Program-made: the position numbers and the translations under genes | Origin: a virus | Taxonomy: Duplodnaviria > Heunggongvirae > Uroviricota > Caudoviricetes | DNA length: 45,970 nucleotides | IMG/VR virus record: IMGVR_UViG_2778261461_000002 | Coordinates: 1-45,970 of that record | Direction: 5' to 3' (one strand) | In this document: in pieces, positions 1-28,788 of the stretch | Position numbering within the stretch: the stretch's first letter is position 1 | Layout: each line of letters begins with the position of its first letter | The notes under the pieces: generated by a model | Databases searched by the model: none | Told to the model about the DNA's origin: nothing | The model's input: the letters and a program-made list of their open reading frames with translations, nothing else

Positions 1-318
1 TCACACCACCCTGTCATCCTGCAGCGCGCTGTTGATGAAGTACGTCACGCGCCCCATCACTTCGACCTCTTCCGCAGCCTCACCTTCGATCGCTTCACCA
101 TCATCCGTGATTAACGCCCTTCCCCTGAGTTTCGCAAACTGCGTCCTGCCGCCGGACAAAATCAGCAAAACCTGACCCTGTACCAGCCTGGTGCACGGCT
201 CGATGACCGCAAAGCCAGACGAGGTTTCCAGGATGCGGCTGTCCATGCCGATCCCGCAGATAATTTCCGGAGATAAACGCGGTGCTACGAAATCAGCCGC
301 CGGTGAAGGAAATCCCAT
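1..318 (-). CDS. UmuD/LexA-like S24 peptidase-family protein (UmuD'-like, 105 aa)
   Basis: N-terminus MGFPSPAADF matches the UmuD segment just after the Cys-Gly autocleavage site; QFAKLRG fits the catalytic-Lys region; stop codon at bases 1-3, so any partner gene lies outside the window. Confidence 0.5.
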   Translation of the reverse strand: MGFPSPAADFVAPRLSPEIICGIGMDSRILETSSGFAVIEPCTRLVQGQVLLILSGGRTQFAKLRGRALITDDGEAIEGEAAEEVEVMGRVTYFINSALQDDRVV

Positions 319-566
319 CAGAGCACCCTCCCCATGTTGCGCAGGATCCAGTAGTGATTGTCGGTTCCGTCAGTTGTCTTGTCGGTGAAGTCGGGCTGGT
401 AGCGCTCTATCCACTCGTTGGCATCGTCCCGGCTGAAATGCCAGTGAACCTTTGCCAGTTCGCGGATAAAGTCTTCTGTGCGTAAGCACCGGTAGCCCTT
501 GGGGTTTAGCTGTATTGCGGCCACAAATGCGGCGTGAATGTCGTGACGGCGGGGCATGATCTGCAC
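318..566 (-). CDS. hypothetical protein (82 aa), 1-nt overlap with downstream UmuD'-like gene
   Basis: ORF track; tight coupling to the next gene; no motif recognised. Confidence 0.3.
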   Translation of the reverse strand: MQIMPRRHDIHAAFVAAIQLNPKGYRCLRTEDFIRELAKVHWHFSRDDANEWIERYQPDFTDKTTDGTDNHYWILRNMGRVL

Positions 567-682
567 TCCTTTTACTGTTTTTATATACAGTAGTTTTAAA
601 GTGAGTGCAGATCAATGTGGTGAAGCCTATCAATACGTGTCGCTGACGGGCGTCAATGCCCTGGCGCATTCTCTCTCAACTG

Positions 683-3046
683 TCACCTGAACGAGATACG
701 CACGCGTTTGATGATTACATCGCCACCGAATGTGCTTGGTGATGCGTAGCCGAACTTAATCTTGGTGATCATCGAAGAGGACATGCCGGTGATCGTGTGG
801 GTATTAATATTCCCGACCTTATAACCGTCCTCAGTCCGCAGTCTGGCGATCTTGCTTGGAATATCGAGAGAGTGCCTGAACTTACAGACATTCCCTGCAA
901 CGAGCGGGTATGTGGCGCTAGATGTAAGGTCTGACGCTACACCGCCGCTGGACACTGTTCCCCTGGTCTGCAGGCTGGCGGTCACCTGATACAGGGCCCT
1001 GTCCCCGGTTGTTGCTTCACCGAGCGTTACGACATAGCACTGCCCTGACGGGCCGATGAAATCAATTTCTACGGAGATCCTTTCGAATGAGAGACCAGCT
1101 TCCATGAAATCAGCAGTATCGATATAAGCCCGGTTAGTGGCACCAAATTTCGCACCGATAACGTTGTTTTTAGCATCACGAACATACTCGATCGCGCCAT
1201 TGATAAACGTCAGCTTACCAAACAAGTTTGAAATTGCTGCTGATTTTGGGCTCAGGTGGTTGGAGACGTTTAATTTCCCACTGACAAAGTCAGCCACAAT
1301 GTCATAGCTTTTTTCTTTCCCGCCAGCACTGCCGAACCAGTAATCAACCGGAGCTGTATAAATCCGGGAACTGGCTTTCGCTGTCGGGTGATTAAGCCCA
1401 TTACCGCCATCCCCCTCGGTGTTATATACGTCATGATCGGTTAATACGGGAGCCATAGGAATTTCAGTTCCTGCAATCAAATCAACCCTCATCTGCCCGG
1501 ATCCTCCAATTGTAGGCGTGAAGAGGCCACCGAAGCGGATGATATTTCCTGAGAACACTGGGGTTGTATTATCTCCAATGAAAATCGTCAGAGAATCACC
1601 ATTCAACGAGAAGAAGATTTCCATATCGACAGCAGGCGCCGCGCCATCGGCAAACTGGTTAAGCGTAATCCCCACTGACGTTCCGGTGTACACCTGGACA
1701 TGCCATTTAGATAGCGCCATATCGTACGCAAGCGTAACGAAGTTATTCGTAGCCTGAGACAGTGAAAACTGAATGCCGGCAGTCATAACGGCAGGATCCG
1801 TCAGGACGAGCCTTGCCGAATAGCATGGCACCATATCAGTATACGAATAGGGTAAGTTCACCAGGACTGAGGTGGTTTTGCGAGCATAGCTGAACGCGCA
1901 CGGATCTACTCCATCACGCAGCGCTTTAAACCTCCGGTGCAGGTCTATAAAGCTGGCCCCGATGAATTTTGCATAAGAACGGGTCCAGCCAGCCATCGCG
2001 TCACGCCCGGATTGCTGATCAAAATCTGACGTTGCCGGGTTCCCTTTTGACGGAAGAATATTCGTACAGAAAATAATTTCAGGCTCGCTGCTGATGGTCC
2101 TGAGCTCATCCATCATTTTATAAAAGTTAGGCTGCTGGAAATTACCCGCGAGCCAGCCTGCACCGTCGTTCATCCCGAAAGCCAGGATCACTACATCAGG
2201 CTTGAGATCGTCAATATATGACATCCAGCGCTTTGAGGTGTTGTCATACCAGGGATAGCCACTGTTTGGTGTGCTGAAAACGGGTTCGTTTCTGCCTAAA
2301 TCGTAATATCGCATCCCACCGATAGCACGGTTAATAAATTCCGCAGTTGGGTTAATCTCCTGCACCTTTCTGCGAAGATAGGACTCAAACAGCGACGTGA
2401 TATTAGCTGTGTCAATATTATAGAAGCTGCTGAGGCTATCCCCGACCAGAACTACTTTCGCGCCATGGCGGCAGAGCTTGTTTTTGGCGGCCTCAGTTGC
2501 ATACCCAAATGACATTGGAGCAGGATCTGATGCCAGAATCTCACCCAAAGTCCTGTCAAATGGCGTACCGACCATAGTGGCACCGGTTGGCTTTGCCAAA
2601 TCGCTGCGTGCAGTTCCGTCACTCACATTGACCCATTTCCCTTTATCTACTCCGCCAGAAGTAGTCGGCGTAGAACCAGGAGGGACCACTTTAGGGAGTG
2701 CACCATCCCAGCGGTAATAATCACCATCGCCGTCTGGCAACTTCCAACGTAGTGCCTGATTAGTTAGGGTCAGCGTTTTACCATCCTGGAAGGAGTCCAT
2801 GGTGATGTAACCCACACCGGCAATGGCTTTCTTGCCATCTTCAATAAATTTATTAATTGCCGCTGATGCGATCCCCTCAAGACCGTACCAGGTACGCCGG
2901 GCGCGACCAAAGCGATCATGCCAGATAGCATCAGTAATGCTGTTGATGGCTGTATCAAAATTCTGGGAGTTATCGAAGAGGTCCTTCGGGTCGGTGGAGC
3001 CCAATGGTTTGTTTGTTCCGTAAATAGTCATGCTCGCTCCGGGCAT
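683..3046 (-). CDS. tail fibre/tailspike with central SGNH/GDSL hydrolase domain
   Basis: 787 aa; GDSL block VVLVGDSLSS and AFGMNDG block typical of SGNH esterases; position immediately downstream of the J-like gene; alternative start at 3031 (MTIYG). Confidence 0.7.
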   Translation of the reverse strand: MPGASMTIYGTNKPLGSTDPKDLFDNSQNFDTAINSITDAIWHDRFGRARRTWYGLEGIASAAINKFIEDGKKAIAGVGYITMDSFQDGKTLTLTNQALRWKLPDGDGDYYRWDGALPKVVPPGSTPTTSGGVDKGKWVNVSDGTARSDLAKPTGATMVGTPFDRTLGEILASDPAPMSFGYATEAAKNKLCRHGAKVVLVGDSLSSFYNIDTANITSLFESYLRRKVQEINPTAEFINRAIGGMRYYDLGRNEPVFSTPNSGYPWYDNTSKRWMSYIDDLKPDVVILAFGMNDGAGWLAGNFQQPNFYKMMDELRTISSEPEIIFCTNILPSKGNPATSDFDQQSGRDAMAGWTRSYAKFIGASFIDLHRRFKALRDGVDPCAFSYARKTTSVLVNLPYSYTDMVPCYSARLVLTDPAVMTAGIQFSLSQATNNFVTLAYDMALSKWHVQVYTGTSVGITLNQFADGAAPAVDMEIFFSLNGDSLTIFIGDNTTPVFSGNIIRFGGLFTPTIGGSGQMRVDLIAGTEIPMAPVLTDHDVYNTEGDGGNGLNHPTAKASSRIYTAPVDYWFGSAGGKEKSYDIVADFVSGKLNVSNHLSPKSAAISNLFGKLTFINGAIEYVRDAKNNVIGAKFGATNRAYIDTADFMEAGLSFERISVEIDFIGPSGQCYVVTLGEATTGDRALYQVTASLQTRGTVSSGGVASDLTSSATYPLVAGNVCKFRHSLDIPSKIARLRTEDGYKVGNINTHTITGMSSSMITKIKFGYASPSTFGGDVIIKRVRISFR

Positions 3047-3070
3047 AAAAAAACCCGCCGAAGCGGGTCA
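3047..3070 (-). terminator. rho-independent terminator between J-like gene and tail fibre gene
   Basis: GC hairpin acccgc-ttcg-gcgggt followed by U-run on the minus-strand transcript; also hairpin plus T-run on plus strand. Confidence 0.6.
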
Positions 3071-3088
3071 GATAATATTGATTTGCTG

Positions 3089-6000
3089 TTAAGCGGCGTC
3101 GCCTGGGTATGTGGCGTCATCGTAGGCGTATTTGCCGGGGTGATACTGAATGGCTGTTACCTGGCTGATCCCATCGTTACCCGGTGATATTTCTCCGATC
3201 AGAGCGTCGTAAGGCACACGGACAGAAGAGCAGAACAGCAGGCGCGGCGGCTCAATATACGGGTCGTTCATCGCCCACAATTCTGGCTCCAGCGCGGCGC
3301 TATACGGCACCGAGATGGTGAAGTCGTCGATGCGTGTCGGCACTACCATTGCCGAAGCCCTGCCGTCCTGGTGGCGGATAATCACGCGAGGGCTCTGGAA
3401 TGACCAGTCAGGTGCCTCACTGAGCGTCATGGTGATTTTGCTGCTGTCATACTTCATATCGGTAATCAGGCAACTCAGCTGCTGATTGCCCGGTATATCG
3501 TCGGCCATTACAATCCGATCCATAAACTCGTAGCAGAGCGCATCCATTTCAGTTGATGTGGTGTGCTGCAGGCGCTGCAGCTGGTAGCCCAGCAACCGGC
3601 GCATGCCGATGCGGTAAGCCCGGTCTTCATTCAGAACACCATCCAGCGTGTAGCTCTCGATTTTCATGGGTGTAGGGTTTCCAGGCAGGCGACACTGCAC
3701 AGTTTCCTCTGCCCAGGTGGTGCCGTTGATATACGCCACGTCCACGCCATCGTAATCGTCCTGCGACGGGGCTTTAAACGCGGTCTGCAGCTCCTCGGTG
3801 GTTTCCTGCGGGGTGATCATGCCGACCCATGGTTTAATCCCTTCCCTGCCGGCAGACGCCAGCCCGTCAGACAGCAGAAAATATCCCATCCCCGCGTTGG
3901 TGATTTTCTGCAGCACCTCGAGCGCTGATTTACTCTCACCGCTCGCCCAGTCGAATTTCTCACCTCGGGGGGTCCAGTAGGTTTGCTCCAGCGCGTTAAT
4001 CGCCGCCGTGTCAATCTGGCTGGCGTTGAACCCCAGCGACTCAAGCACATGGTACAGCGCGCCGCTGATGCTCCGCGCCGTTCTGCCGCCGCTGTAAATC
4101 CGGGTTGGTGTAACGCTAATCCGGCGATCTGACATGGCCGCCAGGCGGTTCCCTGTGCGTACGGTCAGGGCCATGGTGGTGACACCATCGTACCTCGTGG
4201 GTCGCTTGCTCAGCCGGGAGCGCAGCGCCTGCCAGAAAACCTGGTCACGCGTGCTGCCACCCTTAACCGGTTCGGTGCGGCGCATCCGGATCTCATACTG
4301 TCCGGGAGAGACGCTGTAGCGATGCGTAAACCCGATCTGGTTTTCAGTGCTGCGTGAATAGAAAGGTGACTGCTGCTGCCAGGTAGTGGTCCCGACCTTC
4401 CGATACTGGATAACGAGGCGCACCGGCATGTCCCGTTTATTCCCTTTATCGGTGTAGCGCACTAACCCGCTCTGGAAGTTGATATTCACCTCAAATGCGT
4501 CCAGCGTTTCGCCGTCAGGGCACGCCAGGAACGGGCCGACCCATTCGTAATCGTCGCTGACACCTGTCACGGTGGCATCCAGCAGCGTGCGCTCTGTGAA
4601 ACCAGGCCACGATGGATCTGGCGTCGTAATGGTCTCACCCCCCGGGCCGGCGGTGACTGTAAGCCGCTCAACTGTGACCGTCTGGCTGTCCACATCGGTG
4701 ATCCGGAACTGATTGCCGGCCAGACCCAGCGAGAAGCGCTGAATGCCTTCCGGCAGTCCGGTAAACGGCGTGCCGGCGGCGCTGTTGTAGGCCAGAGTGA
4801 TGTGCGCCCTGACCTCCGCCGTGCCGCCAGTTGATTTCACGCCTGCCGTGTTAACCGGGGCATCACCGAACACAGCAACCGGTAACGGACTGTTAGTGAT
4901 GGACCCGCCGGCATAAGGGCTGCTGGCCTCGCCGATTTCAAGCCGCCCGCTGTTATCGCGCGCGACCAGGCCAGAACCAGAGAGCTGGGAGGTGATCGAG
5001 GAAATCAGGCCTGACATGGTGACGTAGTTGGTCACCAGCGATACCGGGTAAGTCGTGCCCTGCCAGCTGATGCTGAACGTTACAGGCGTGCTGCTGAAAT
5101 CGTAGGTCGTCGGCGCGGCGTTAGCGGTGATGCTGGCGGCGCTGCCGCCCACACCCGGCACCGGCGGCACGCCCGGGGCGTAGCTGGCGATAAACAGGTC
5201 ATAGTCATTGCCGTTATAGTTCAGGGATACCGGCATTCCGACCACTGGAGCCAACTCCTCCACCCCGCCATAAATCACGCTGTAACCGGCGGAAGACACG
5301 ACTGTATAAGAGTTTGGCGCCAGCACGGTGATGACCGTTCCGACAGTCCACGACGGCGGGATCTCCTCATCCCCAGACGACGATACGTCAACCAGCGTGA
5401 TGGAGTTTCCGGACACGACCAGCGCATCCGCGATAATACTGACCGTCTCCGGGCCGCTTGAGCCCAGGTCCAGACCGGCGGTGCCGGAGCCGGTATTCCC
5501 GACCTCTGGTGAGTTGAACCAGTTTTCGGTACGCGTGTCGCCGGATACGTCAGCGCCAGGTGGGAAGATTTTGTAACGGATATCAGTGCCAAATGAAGAA
5601 AATGGCGTATTCCCCACCTTCAGATCAGACTGGTTGATAGCCACGTCGCCGACGCATATGCACAGGAACATGCTTGTTTCCATGCTGGTCTCGTTGACGA
5701 AACGGCTTACCGGCTGCACGACGTAATCAGGCCAGACACGGTATTTTCCGAAGATTTCCCGGATGGGATCGCCGAGTTTCGCCGCGTTAGCTTTGGCCGG
5801 GTTGAGGTCAATCTGGTCGCCGCTGGCCGCCTGGGAACCGCCGCCGCCAGCTTGCGACATAGTACTCATCATGTAGATGCTGTACGCAGCAGAGGCGACA
5901 GCTACGCTGACGGCAACCCAGATCGCGATTTCTGCGCCGGTACCGTAGGGAACCGGATACATCCTGACGTCGGTTTCCCGCTTGATAACGCACAGTGGCC

Positions 6001-6250
6001 ACTCTGACGCCGGGACGGGAACACCATCGATTTCAACCGCAACCGGGTGCTGCTGATCCGGCCTCCAGTCCTTCACGTTCCGCGCAAACCAGGCGCTGAG
6101 GGTCATCGTTTCATGTTGATGCGTTTCCAGCGGTTCGCCCGGCAGGCGGGACGGATAGATTCGGATCGTCACTGGTAATACTCCACGCGAACAAAGCGGC
6201 GCGCAAACCGCGCCAGCGGCAGAAAGGTTACATTGGTGCGCGGATTGCAC
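3089..6250 (-). CDS. host specificity / central tail fibre protein J-like, with gpI-like N-terminal region
   Basis: 1053 aa; segment YEIRMRRTEPVKGGSTRDQVFW resembles the conserved lambda gpJ N-domain block NIRMRRMTPDSTTDQLQNKTLW; GTG start at 6250 overlaps upstream gene, alternative ATG at 6106. Confidence 0.8.
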   Translation of the reverse strand: MQSAHQCNLSAAGAVCAPLCSRGVLPVTIRIYPSRLPGEPLETHQHETMTLSAWFARNVKDWRPDQQHPVAVEIDGVPVPASEWPLCVIKRETDVRMYPVPYGTGAEIAIWVAVSVAVASAAYSIYMMSTMSQAGGGGSQAASGDQIDLNPAKANAAKLGDPIREIFGKYRVWPDYVVQPVSRFVNETSMETSMFLCICVGDVAINQSDLKVGNTPFSSFGTDIRYKIFPPGADVSGDTRTENWFNSPEVGNTGSGTAGLDLGSSGPETVSIIADALVVSGNSITLVDVSSSGDEEIPPSWTVGTVITVLAPNSYTVVSSAGYSVIYGGVEELAPVVGMPVSLNYNGNDYDLFIASYAPGVPPVPGVGGSAASITANAAPTTYDFSSTPVTFSISWQGTTYPVSLVTNYVTMSGLISSITSQLSGSGLVARDNSGRLEIGEASSPYAGGSITNSPLPVAVFGDAPVNTAGVKSTGGTAEVRAHITLAYNSAAGTPFTGLPEGIQRFSLGLAGNQFRITDVDSQTVTVERLTVTAGPGGETITTPDPSWPGFTERTLLDATVTGVSDDYEWVGPFLACPDGETLDAFEVNINFQSGLVRYTDKGNKRDMPVRLVIQYRKVGTTTWQQQSPFYSRSTENQIGFTHRYSVSPGQYEIRMRRTEPVKGGSTRDQVFWQALRSRLSKRPTRYDGVTTMALTVRTGNRLAAMSDRRISVTPTRIYSGGRTARSISGALYHVLESLGFNASQIDTAAINALEQTYWTPRGEKFDWASGESKSALEVLQKITNAGMGYFLLSDGLASAGREGIKPWVGMITPQETTEELQTAFKAPSQDDYDGVDVAYINGTTWAEETVQCRLPGNPTPMKIESYTLDGVLNEDRAYRIGMRRLLGYQLQRLQHTTSTEMDALCYEFMDRIVMADDIPGNQQLSCLITDMKYDSSKITMTLSEAPDWSFQSPRVIIRHQDGRASAMVVPTRIDDFTISVPYSAALEPELWAMNDPYIEPPRLLFCSSVRVPYDALIGEISPGNDGISQVTAIQYHPGKYAYDDATYPGDAA

Positions 6251-12426: not shown

Positions 12427-12456
12427 ACAAAAAAGCCCCGGACAATGCCGAGGCTT
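12427..12456 (-). terminator. rho-independent terminator after tail chaperone gene
   Basis: minus-strand hairpin gcctcgg-cattgt-ccggggc (one G-U pair) followed by U-run. Confidence 0.5.
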
Positions 12457-13964: not shown

Positions 13965-14023
13965 GTGTTACCTCTCAAAATAAAAAGGCCGCCATAAGGC
14001 AGCCTGGATGGTGTGAGTTGAAT

Positions 14024-19192: not shown

Positions 19193-19219
19193 AATAAAAA
19201 AGGCCGCCGTGGCGACCTT
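19193..19219 (-). terminator. rho-independent terminator after 243-aa moron gene
   Basis: minus-strand hairpin ggtcgcc-acg-gcggcc followed by U7. Confidence 0.5.
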
Positions 19220-25131: not shown

Positions 25132-25866
25132 TTATTCAGCTTTGAGCGTAGCAATTGCATCAATAATGGGCTGTATAGGGAAACCGATACCTATGCCAGG
25201 ATTTGCATTAGACTCCAGAATTTTGACTATTGTAGCCAGTGACTCTGCATAAAGTGAGTTAACCCTCGCGAAATCCACACCACCGAAGCTTACATTCACT
25301 TGCATGTTCCCAATTTCTATCAAAAGTCTTTTGGATCTTTCAGCAATAGCATCAGCCTCAACTTTTCCCGGGTATCTTCTTTCGGTGACGATACCAACCA
25401 CATCCCCTGACTCTAATTCAATAATGGGGCCTCCGGAATTGCCACCGTTTACCATTCCATCGATAGCAAACTTGCCGTCCTCCATTGGGGCTGAAATTAT
25501 GGCTTCACTTGTTAACAAATCAGATAAACCATGCGGATAGCCTGCAAAAATCAAACGCTTTCCCCTTGTTGGGGTGAAGTTGGGTGAAGGCTGCAAAACA
25601 ACCCTTCCCGCTGGCAGTGCTTCTGAAAGTTGCATGACCGCAATGTCGTTTTCGATGTCAACACGTTGAATCTGAGCTTGTAAGCTCTGATGAGATTCAG
25701 TGAGCAAAGTGACTGGACCGCGAGTGCTGCTAGTTGCTATATCAACCAATGATTTTATTACATGCCAATTTGTAATAACTAAATCATCCCTCAGGAAACT
25801 AAAACCACTGCCGCGAGACTGCCCTGCAATGACTTGAAAAGTTGCGTTGGCTAAAGTTTGATGCAT
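25132..25866 (-). CDS. trypsin-like (S1/Trypsin_2-type) serine protease, no signal peptide
   Basis: 244 aa; catalytic triad contexts TNWHV (His), ENDIAV (Asp), GNSGGP (Ser); AT-rich gene. Confidence 0.75.
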   Translation of the reverse strand: MHQTLANATFQVIAGQSRGSGFSFLRDDLVITNWHVIKSLVDIATSSTRGPVTLLTESHQSLQAQIQRVDIENDIAVMQLSEALPAGRVVLQPSPNFTPTRGKRLIFAGYPHGLSDLLTSEAIISAPMEDGKFAIDGMVNGGNSGGPIIELESGDVVGIVTERRYPGKVEADAIAERSKRLLIEIGNMQVNVSFGGVDFARVNSLYAESLATIVKILESNANPGIGIGFPIQPIIDAIATLKAE

Positions 25867-28098: not shown

Positions 28099-28788
28099 TT
28101 AATTGACTTTTGCAACACCCTGCTGCGAAAAAGCTGCTTTTTGTTGTGATCGTGTTCTCACTGCTCGCAGTAAAGCATCACTATCAAGTCGCTCAAATAT
28201 GGCACACATGGCATTCCAGTAGTCGGCGTAGTTATGGCTCCAGTTATCCGGTTTCACCCCGCATAACTCAGCCAGTTCCTGCTTCTGGTGTGTTTCCCGC
28301 CCGGCCAGCTCAGCTTTAACATCCTGCGCCGCCAGCCAGATTAACGCCTTCAGCCTGTCCATGGTCTTGCCGGCCACCTTCCGGGTTCCCAGTTGCTCCC
28401 TGAACTGGGCCCATGCCCACTGAGTGATCGCCACCTGGTTCTCCCAGCGCACATTCTCGCTGTAGTTCCAGAGTAGCCACGCTTTCTGGTGCTCATCCAG
28501 CGACAGCACTGCGCGACGCCACGACGCGGTGGAGTATTCGACCGGCTGAACCAGAGGAATGTGCGACCCCTTAGCGCGGGACTGCTGCCCGGGGATCGGC
28601 GGATTGCTCGGGTTAACCAGCTTCCCGTTCGCCGGGTTAATCACTTTCACGCGAGAACGGCTGCGCGGAGTGGCAGTGAACATGGCGTTTTCGGCAAAGG
28701 CGACCAGTTGTCCTTTAGTTGCCCCACTCAGATCGGCAGTCGCAACCATCAGCTGCTGGCGTACAAATTCCAGGTATTGTGTGTTCAC
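28099..28788 (-). CDS. late-gene antiterminator Q-like protein (positional)
   Basis: 229 aa; located between NinG and the terminator/lysis cassette; no sequence match to lambda Q recalled. Confidence 0.4.
   Translation of the reverse strand: MNTQYLEFVRQQLMVATADLSGATKGQLVAFAENAMFTATPRSRSRVKVINPANGKLVNPSNPPIPGQQSRAKGSHIPLVQPVEYSTASWRRAVLSLDEHQKAWLLWNYSENVRWENQVAITQWAWAQFREQLGTRKVAGKTMDRLKALIWLAAQDVKAELAGRETHQKQELAELCGVKPDNWSHNYADYWNAMCAIFERLDSDALLRAVRTRSQQKAAFSQQGVAKVN

Follow-up and report, generated by a model that had tools for sequence, protein, structure and literature searches.

The 45,970-nucleotide stretch of virus DNA analysed here (positions 1 to 45,970 of IMG/VR record IMGVR_UViG_2778261461_000002; hereafter the window) carries, directly after a gene for a TipJ-type tail-tip protein, a minus-strand gene whose product is, with a probability of about 0.8, an active esterase receptor-binding protein of a lambdoid, Q-regulated siphovirus prophage; the activity is predicted from homology. 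The protein is an uncharacterised example of the established esterase tailspikes, and there is little in it that is new in kind. Mildly unusual points only are an SGNH block V that contains Asn-His (N-H) and lacks the canonical aspartate, together with a lectin-like insert (both common to a relative of proven activity), and a terminator-bounded cassette junction in front of the gene. An earlier note on this DNA had proposed an enzymatically active receptor-binding protein, for example a deacetylase; the conserved Ser, Asn and His residues and the homology to gp66 of the Pectobacterium phage Possum support that proposal.

683..3031, minus strand: tailspike/receptor-binding protein coding sequence, 782 amino acids (aa) plus stop (ORF list; start chosen by PGAP; second ATG kept in nine prophages)

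The longest uninterrupted open reading frame (ORF), 683..3046 on the minus strand (787 aa), carries the motifs VVLVGDSLSS and AFGMNDG; the ORF list confirms what the earlier note had said of it, and the two motifs are real SGNH blocks I and III. The SGNH/GDSL profile PF13472 (Lipase_GDSL_2) matches at 55.4 bits against a cut-off of 32.9 bits (E 1.4e-14). Splicing out the insert at residues 375-525 (residue numbers refer to the 782-aa form) raises the score from 55.4 to 64.4 bits and extends the match over profile positions 2-174 of 178; GGNGLNHPT is identified as block V because the match spans that block once the insert is removed. The distal block anticipated by the earlier note is thus present, but an inserted domain of ~150 aa separates it from block III. 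Residues 149-786 match PHROG 17220 (8e-151), whose label is 'unknown function', and many tail fibre and tailspike PHROGs match the first ~175 residues only. An AlphaFold2 monomer model built from 27 homologues (mean pLDDT 82.4) resolves the chain into the following parts.

2537..3031, minus strand: N-terminal virion-anchor region, residues 1-165, with helices 15-38 and 54-72 (PF18668; Sf11 gp13 homology); in the model, N-terminal helices at residues 15-72, of low confidence in the monomer, and a small beta domain at residues ~76-135
2618-2821, minus strand: Tail_spike_N domain (PF18668; Pfam, 5.9e-15)
1910..2476, minus strand: SGNH esterase domain part 1, residues 186-374, blocks I-III; an alpha/beta domain in the model
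1457..1909, minus strand: inserted beta-sandwich, residues 375-525, of concanavalin-A/laminin-G-like fold, presumed carbohydrate-binding, between the last SGNH helix and block V; an all-beta domain in the model
1322..1456, minus strand: SGNH domain part 2, residues 526-570, with the block V variant GGNGLNHPT (spliced PF13472 match); a short helical segment in the model
686..1321, minus strand: C-terminal beta-sandwich, residues 571-782, presumed distal receptor-binding or trimer-stabilising (AlphaFold2 secondary structure, tandem lectin-like matches); a second all-beta domain in the model

The predicted fold is the three-layer alpha/beta/alpha fold of SGNH enzymes. The best whole-chain Foldseek matches are Gp48 of Shigella phage B2 (9d84_A, 5.4e-16) and G7C gp63.1 (4qnl, 9.5e-15), both of them esterase tailspikes, so that alignment to a non-enzymatic fold, which the earlier note had put forward as the outcome that would count against it, is not what is found. 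The scores in the fold comparison were as follows.

Acetyl-mannan esterase 6hfz: 17.3
Peptidoglycan O-acetylesterase Ape1 (8gld, 4k3u): 15.7, 15.2
G7C gp63.1 (4qnl): 13.6
Rhamnogalacturonan acetylesterase 1deo: 13.3

Comparison by sequence with proteins of known structure is less productive. A PDB sequence search with the esterase region returned 3p94 alone, at E 0.0075, with block V unaligned. Profile alignment (hhalign) to the G7C SGNH region and to E. coli TesA gave probabilities of <3% and is not used as evidence; in the TesA comparison blocks I-III lined up as expected.

The predicted catalytic residues are distributed over the SGNH blocks.

2435-2437, minus strand: codon of Ser199, block I
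2315-2317, minus strand: codon of Gly239, block II
2168-2170, minus strand: codon of Asn288, block III
1388-1390, minus strand: codon of His548, block V

By homology, Ser199 would be the nucleophile and His548, which directly precedes helix 551-557 of the AlphaFold2 model, the general base; the oxyanion hole would consist of the Gly239 backbone NH and the Asn288 side chain. G197-D198-S199, G239, G286-M287-N288-D289 and G543-N544...N547-H548 are invariant in the 27 homologues, down to 22% identity. The comparison was widened to 176 proteins, 140 of them representatives of the matches obtained in 1.84 billion sequences (481 matches at E<=1e-3, 291 at E<=1e-10). In this set Ser199 is Ser in 170/170 aligned relatives, Asn288 and Gly286 are retained in 176/176, and His548 is retained in 155/155, with Asn547 at its side in all but one of 156; the Gly239 position is more permissive (Gly in 145 of 174, Ala in 15, Ser in 12). 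The loss of conservation at the SGNH catalytic residues against which the earlier note had staked its proposal did not materialise: Ser, Asn and His are conserved in all aligned relatives.

The invariant His548 also bears out one half of the Asp/His pair that had been expected in the distal block. The other half is missing: the canonical block V Asp, three residues before the histidine (H-3), is replaced by Gly545, and the family motif is G-N-x-x-N-H. Among ~155 relatives the H-3 residue is Gly in 105-109 and Asp in 13-14. Because the canonical acid at H-3 is Gly, the enzyme would most likely work with a Ser-His dyad, or with a triad completed by the invariant Asn547 or Asn544 or by a main-chain carbonyl. 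The same replacement is what speaks for a catalytically dead SGNH domain that serves for binding only and recognises polysaccharide through an esterase-like pocket and lectin-like domains; some phages' tailspikes of other folds have indeed lost activity. Such a loss is nevertheless very unlikely here. The retention of Ser, the oxyanion Gly/Asn and His over 150-176 relatives is hard to explain without catalysis, Possum gp66 is an active deacetylase with the same Asp-less motif (PMC9569702), and CE2 esterases and the Streptomyces scabies esterase (SsEst) are active SGNH enzymes with Ser-His dyads, a main-chain carbonyl taking the place of the acid (PMC9487903). Because these dyads and Possum gp66 are active, the missing Asp is a departure from the canonical triad, not evidence of inactivity.

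Possum gp66 is the relative that ties the window protein most directly to an activity. The two align contiguously over residues 184-559 of the window protein (E 4e-29, 28% identity, 415 columns): SGNH blocks I-III correspond, an insert occupies the same position before block V, and block V itself reads GGNGINHPS in gp66 and GGNGLNHPT here. Both are virion receptor-binding proteins. Possum gp66 is an O-polysaccharide deacetylase that removes the 2-O-acetyl group of rhamnose (PMC9569702). An active enzyme with a target other than O-antigen, that is, capsule (K antigen), colanic acid, enterobacterial common antigen, or an O-acetyl group of peptidoglycan as for Ape1, is a possibility of some weight but distinctly the lesser one. 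The closest proven relatives, Possum gp66, G7C gp63.1 and B2 Gp48, act on acetylated O-antigen or depend on it, and peptidoglycan is an improbable target for a side spike that faces outward and has a receptor-binding anchor. Among the readings in which the esterase is active, O-antigen is favoured over other glycans by roughly two to one.

A virion location for the esterase is supported by the Tail_spike_N domain, by the fibre/spike PHROGs that match residues 1-175, by the position of the gene after TipJ, and by homology of the anchor to a tailspike of known structure: residues 4-160 match residues 4-148 of gp13 of the Shigella siphophage Sf11 (PDB 9occ_G, E 4.7e-29). The cryo-electron microscopy structure of Sf11 shows six trimers at the tail tip; in each of them, the three N-terminal helices form a bundle with an adaptor helix that belongs to the distal tail protein (PMC12724387). 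By analogy with these relatives, the window protein would be a trimeric side spike and not a fibre extending from J; the term distal fibre, which the earlier note had used, gives way to a tailspike-type side receptor-binding protein.

These elements suggest the following sequence of events. The N-terminal ~165 residues would fix a homotrimer to the tail tip. When the virion meets its host, the spike would bind an O-acetylated surface polysaccharide (O-antigen or capsule), with the two lectin-like beta-sandwiches (the SGNH insert and the C-terminal domain) serving as polysaccharide-binding elements, and would remove acetyl groups while leaving the backbone uncut. Deacetylation may then let the virion move towards a membrane receptor whose engagement depends on TipJ.

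Several considerations weigh against this picture of an active, Q-regulated esterase spike. The nearest relative with activity data stands at 28% identity, so that enzyme function is assigned by homology, and the absence of the canonical Asp means that an acid-assisted triad cannot be assumed. We infer trimerisation from relatives, the structure having been predicted as a monomer; the candidate for the distal tail protein on which the spike might dock, a 156-aa protein encoded after the tape measure, matches the N-terminus of its Sf11 counterpart gp17 only marginally, at E 0.13. On the side of expression, we likewise infer read-through of the terminator that precedes the gene (see below), and in one related prophage, MDK9L1, that terminator has a broken U-tract, so that strong termination appears not to be universally kept.

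The start of the gene matters for the relation between gene and terminator. The 787-aa length given in the earlier note is that of the longest ORF, from the ATG at 3046; the likely protein has 782 aa. The first ATG directly adjoins the terminator's U-tract and lacks a ribosome-binding site, whereas a Shine-Dalgarno element precedes the second.

3037..3040, minus strand: GGAG Shine-Dalgarno, 5 nt 5' of the ATG at 3031 (read from sequence)

This GGAG is kept in 8/9 aligned prophages, the ninth, ECONIH5, having GAGG. The second ATG is the start chosen by PGAP in three genomes, for the identical gene as well as for related ones in E. coli; nine of nine related E. coli prophages keep it in an alignment in which ECONIH5 lacks the first ATG; and the homologous N-terminus of Sf11 gp13 aligns from it. 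Because of the upstream GGAG, the PGAP choice, the conservation in 9/9 and the Sf11 gp13 alignment, the real tailspike start is, on sequence grounds, almost certainly the ATG at 3031.

Between the gene and its upstream neighbour lies a terminator.

3089..6172 (longest ORF to 6250), minus strand: TipJ-type tail tip/host specificity protein, directly upstream (Pfam, PHROG, RefSeq)
3047..3069, minus strand: intrinsic terminator with stem ACCCGC/GCGGGU, UUCG loop and U7, separating the TipJ stop (3089) from the tailspike start

The upstream gene is J-like, as had been supposed: its product matches Pfam FNIII-A_GpJ at 3.4e-14 and PHROG 469 ('tail protein') at 1e-238, and RefSeq/PGAP names the identical gene 'host specificity factor TipJ family phage tail protein'. 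TipJ has no sequence match in the PDB. The element at 3047-3069 has the hairpin and U-tract of an intrinsic (Rho-independent) terminator, termination itself being predicted: a stem of 6-7 bp with five G-C pairs is directly followed by U7 on the coding strand, and the 76-nt stretch that holds it has a minimum free energy of -19.5 kcal/mol (z -2.3). A canonical terminator does, then, occupy the 42-nt gap between the J stop and the first ATG in which the earlier note had placed a hairpin; to the likely start, the gap is 57 nt. An overlap of the hairpin with the start codon, also claimed there, is ruled out: the terminator ends 16 nt before the ATG at 3031. The hairpin is kept in nine of nine related E. 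coli prophages, and in eight a run of at least four U follows it. The stem of 118UI differs in sequence (CCCGGC/GCCGGG), still pairs, and is followed by U6; the terminators of GN25 and 1008S19 have changes in the loop only; MDK9L1 keeps the stem with a G-U pair, its U-tract reading CUUU. By these comparisons, the structure of the terminator is conserved in relatives beyond sequence identity.

How the tailspike gene might be expressed from behind a terminator is suggested by the remainder of the operon. On its minus strand the window encodes a Q antiterminator, preceded by NinG and NinB and followed by holin, GH108 endolysin and terminase; the genes for TipJ and the tailspike point the same way as Q and the lysis genes, which is the layout of a lambdoid Q operon. 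Three other terminator-like sites lie in intergenic gaps of the same operon.

28099..28788, minus strand: Q antiterminator gene (Pfam PF06323 Phage_antiter_Q, E 3.6e-85)
12433-12456, minus strand: terminator-like hairpin and U-tract, intergenic, just after a stop codon in the late operon (terminator scan against window ORFs)
13986-14005, minus strand: the same, likewise intergenic and just after a late-operon stop codon (same scan)
19200-19219, minus strand: the same, likewise intergenic and just after a late-operon stop codon (same scan)

The total number of terminator-like sites, 21 against a shuffle expectation of 19.1, is not above chance; the three late-operon sites and the one after TipJ are the best-scoring among the sites in coding-strand intergenic gaps. 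The post-TipJ terminator is accordingly an ordinary one of several and not a special feature of the tailspike gene. The tailspike gene would be the last gene of the late operon, transcribed from a Q-dependent late promoter, and Q-modified RNA polymerase would read through the post-TipJ terminator and the three similar ones upstream; without Q, the post-TipJ terminator should keep the gene silent. Read-through by Q is the simplest reading because Q is encoded in the window and the other late-operon terminators need to be read through in any case. The terminator-resistant late transcription envisaged by the earlier note fits, with Q upstream on the same strand and nothing promoter-like in the gap. 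Its alternative, a separate promoter, fares poorly: a scan of minus-strand positions 3032-3500, gap included, gave no sigma-70-like promoter. Were the spike to have a promoter of its own, the terminator would truly end the late transcript and the gene would form an autonomous receptor-binding cassette. A strong conserved terminator directly upstream, and a receptor-binding gene behind it that is swapped as a cassette among related prophages, are what one would expect of such a unit. It is highly improbable all the same, considering the lack of a sigma-70-like site, the mere 16 nt from U-tract to start codon, and the Q gene and three further intergenic terminators, which call for read-through regardless. 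Attenuation is also at odds with the presumably greater need of the virion for tailspike than for TipJ (18 against 3 in Sf11).

Read-through by Q would place the spike under late control; what stands in the slot behind the terminator varies. The nine related prophages have behind the TipJ-terminator junction four SGNH-type proteins (counting that of the window) and five other tail fibre or spike proteins, and the SGNH protein of LR-28 has only its first ~156 residues in common with the window protein (36% identity). The junction appears to be the fixed boundary of an exchangeable receptor-binding cassette, because it is conserved while the gene behind it differs between prophages. A bolder joint reading takes the window protein and its relatives for a distinct SGNH subfamily, with a lectin-like insert before block V and the acid replaced by an invariant Asn-His (Asn/Ser at H-4), and takes the terminator and the first ~10 codons for a fixed cassette-exchange junction that silences the spike in lysogens lacking Q. 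This is doubtful as a whole; if true, it would amount to a new way of tuning the SGNH histidine, possibly in an active site that is gated by substrate and to which the inserted domain contributes. The putative subfamily, whose PHROG is 17220, would number at least 291 clusters at 50% identity (E<=1e-10).

Downstream of the receptor-binding gene, where the window has an SOS box and a UmuD-like module (see below), some of the related prophages (loci L007-L012) have other genes: an acyltransferase in 1008S19, 118UI and ECONIH5, and a family-2 glycosyltransferase in E3 and GN25. They probably serve lysogenic conversion by modifying O-antigen, each gene forming a pair with its receptor-binding cassette. 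Beside the esterase spikes examined (the window, LR-28, PCP06021 and MDK9L1) there is no acyltransferase. The annotated start of the SGNH gene of PCP06021 (L010, 915..3122) lies inside the TipJ end, upstream of the terminator, and is probably over-extended, since PCP06021 also has the conserved ATGAC start behind the terminator.

Window positions 600-3300 match part of the chromosome of E. coli FDAARGOS_1250 (NZ_CP069571.1) at 100% identity, and there RefSeq/PGAP already names the identical gene 'GDSL-type esterase/lipase family protein'. A megablast of the region against GenBank phages gave no match; protein-level search alone was informative. Taken in its entirety, the window is a mosaic relative of the FDAARGOS_1250 prophage and not that prophage itself: 53% of window 1-21000 is shared at 97% identity and 37% of 21000-45970 at 96%, the lysis genes differ (a GH108 endolysin in the window versus GH19 in FDAARGOS_1250), and the window has no tRNA, whereas FDAARGOS_1250 has a tRNA-Arg beside Q. 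Such a patchwork is typical of lambdoid phages; the spike gene travels in it as one unit.

Three further features of these prophages were noted. At 573-592 on the plus strand, the window has TACTGTTTTTATATACAGTA, a perfect match to the LexA SOS-box pattern TACTGT-N8-ACAGTA; the pattern occurs once in the window, where chance would give 0.03 occurrences. This box directly precedes a two-gene module, 318..557 and 1..318 (both minus strand), downstream of the tailspike, in which a gene for a 79-aa protein (phrog_3893, of unknown function, 1.9e-40) overlaps one for a 105-aa UmuD-like protein (phrog_3469, 3e-45) that begins at a GFPSPAAD motif and so is without the N-terminal arm; the module looks like SOS-controlled UmuD'-like cargo at the prophage end. 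At 25132..25866 on the minus strand, between the lysis genes and phage metallopeptidase/terminase genes, a 244-aa trypsin-like serine peptidase (Pfam Trypsin_2, 6.4e-18) is an unusual late-operon passenger. In the FDAARGOS_1250 prophage (L001, 33784..33957), a 57-aa head-tail ORF is labelled '50S ribosomal protein L13' by PGAP, almost certainly a mis-annotation.

Esterase tailspikes set host range in that they recognise acetylated O-antigens or capsules and leave them undegraded; among the enzymatic receptor-binding proteins of temperate phages they are, as recent work suggests, the most frequent. The window contributes a clear instance, from an E. coli prophage, of a split SGNH architecture of the Possum type whose N-H block is Asp-less, and the swappable slot behind the TipJ-terminator junction could serve host-range prediction and the engineering of receptor-binding protein swaps. 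The established SGNH esterase tailspikes include G7C gp63.1, those of B2 and Moo19, Possum gp66, and those of PP99 and the Acinetobacter phage Aristophanes.

The likeness to Possum gp66 is confined to the esterase module: Possum is an N4-like podovirus, and gp66 has 925 aa against 782, with another N-terminal attachment region and another C-terminal domain. Its substrate, the 2-O-acetyl-rhamnose of the Pectobacterium versatile O-polysaccharide, need not be that of the window protein. B2 Gp48, the best Foldseek match, and Moo19 gp82 (PDB 9D84) are homotrimeric esterase tailspikes of N4-like podoviruses; their sequence similarity to the window protein extends over residues ~70-212 only, and Gp48 acts in a complex with Gp49. 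These tailspikes, in B2 as the Gp48/Gp49 complex, hydrolyse p-nitrophenyl acetate, and their phages need an acetylated O-antigen in order to infect (PMC11654681). Sf11 gp13 (PDB 9OCC) shares the N-terminal ~160 residues, but its body is a P22/Sf6-like tailspike, called LPS-hydrolysing (PMC12724387), and not an esterase; the Sf11 distal tail protein has 457 aa, against 156 aa for its candidate counterpart in the window. The Klebsiella prophage receptor-binding proteins 164_08-KL2 and 174_38-KL55 are likewise of temperate origin and have SGNH domains, a likeness by class only, and are linked to capsule types rather than to O-antigen (PMC13123978). Among cellular, non-virion enzymes, the CE2 esterases and the S. 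scabies esterase share the lack of a block V acid, and Ape1 the combination of an SGNH domain with an appended carbohydrate-binding domain; the available parts of the sources on these enzymes do not describe an N-H dipeptide with Asn/Ser at H-4. A T7-like Kayfunavirus and the 149-kb phage anhysbys also have the esterase module of the window protein, the former at 65% identity over residues 79-787, the latter at 55% identity. G7C gp63.1 (PDB 4QNL), from an E. coli phage, deacetylates O-antigen and is similar in sequence to the window protein in the N-terminal domain only; it has a canonical D-T-T-H block V and no insert in its SGNH fold, whereas the window protein is Asp-less and has the insert. 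The C-terminal Pfam domains of gp63.1 (G7C_GBD, G7C_C and Gp63_3rd_G7C) were not detected in the window protein, whose C-terminal domain has no Pfam family. By sequence, then, the window protein appears to belong to the esterase tailspikes as a functional class and to stand outside the G7C sequence family.

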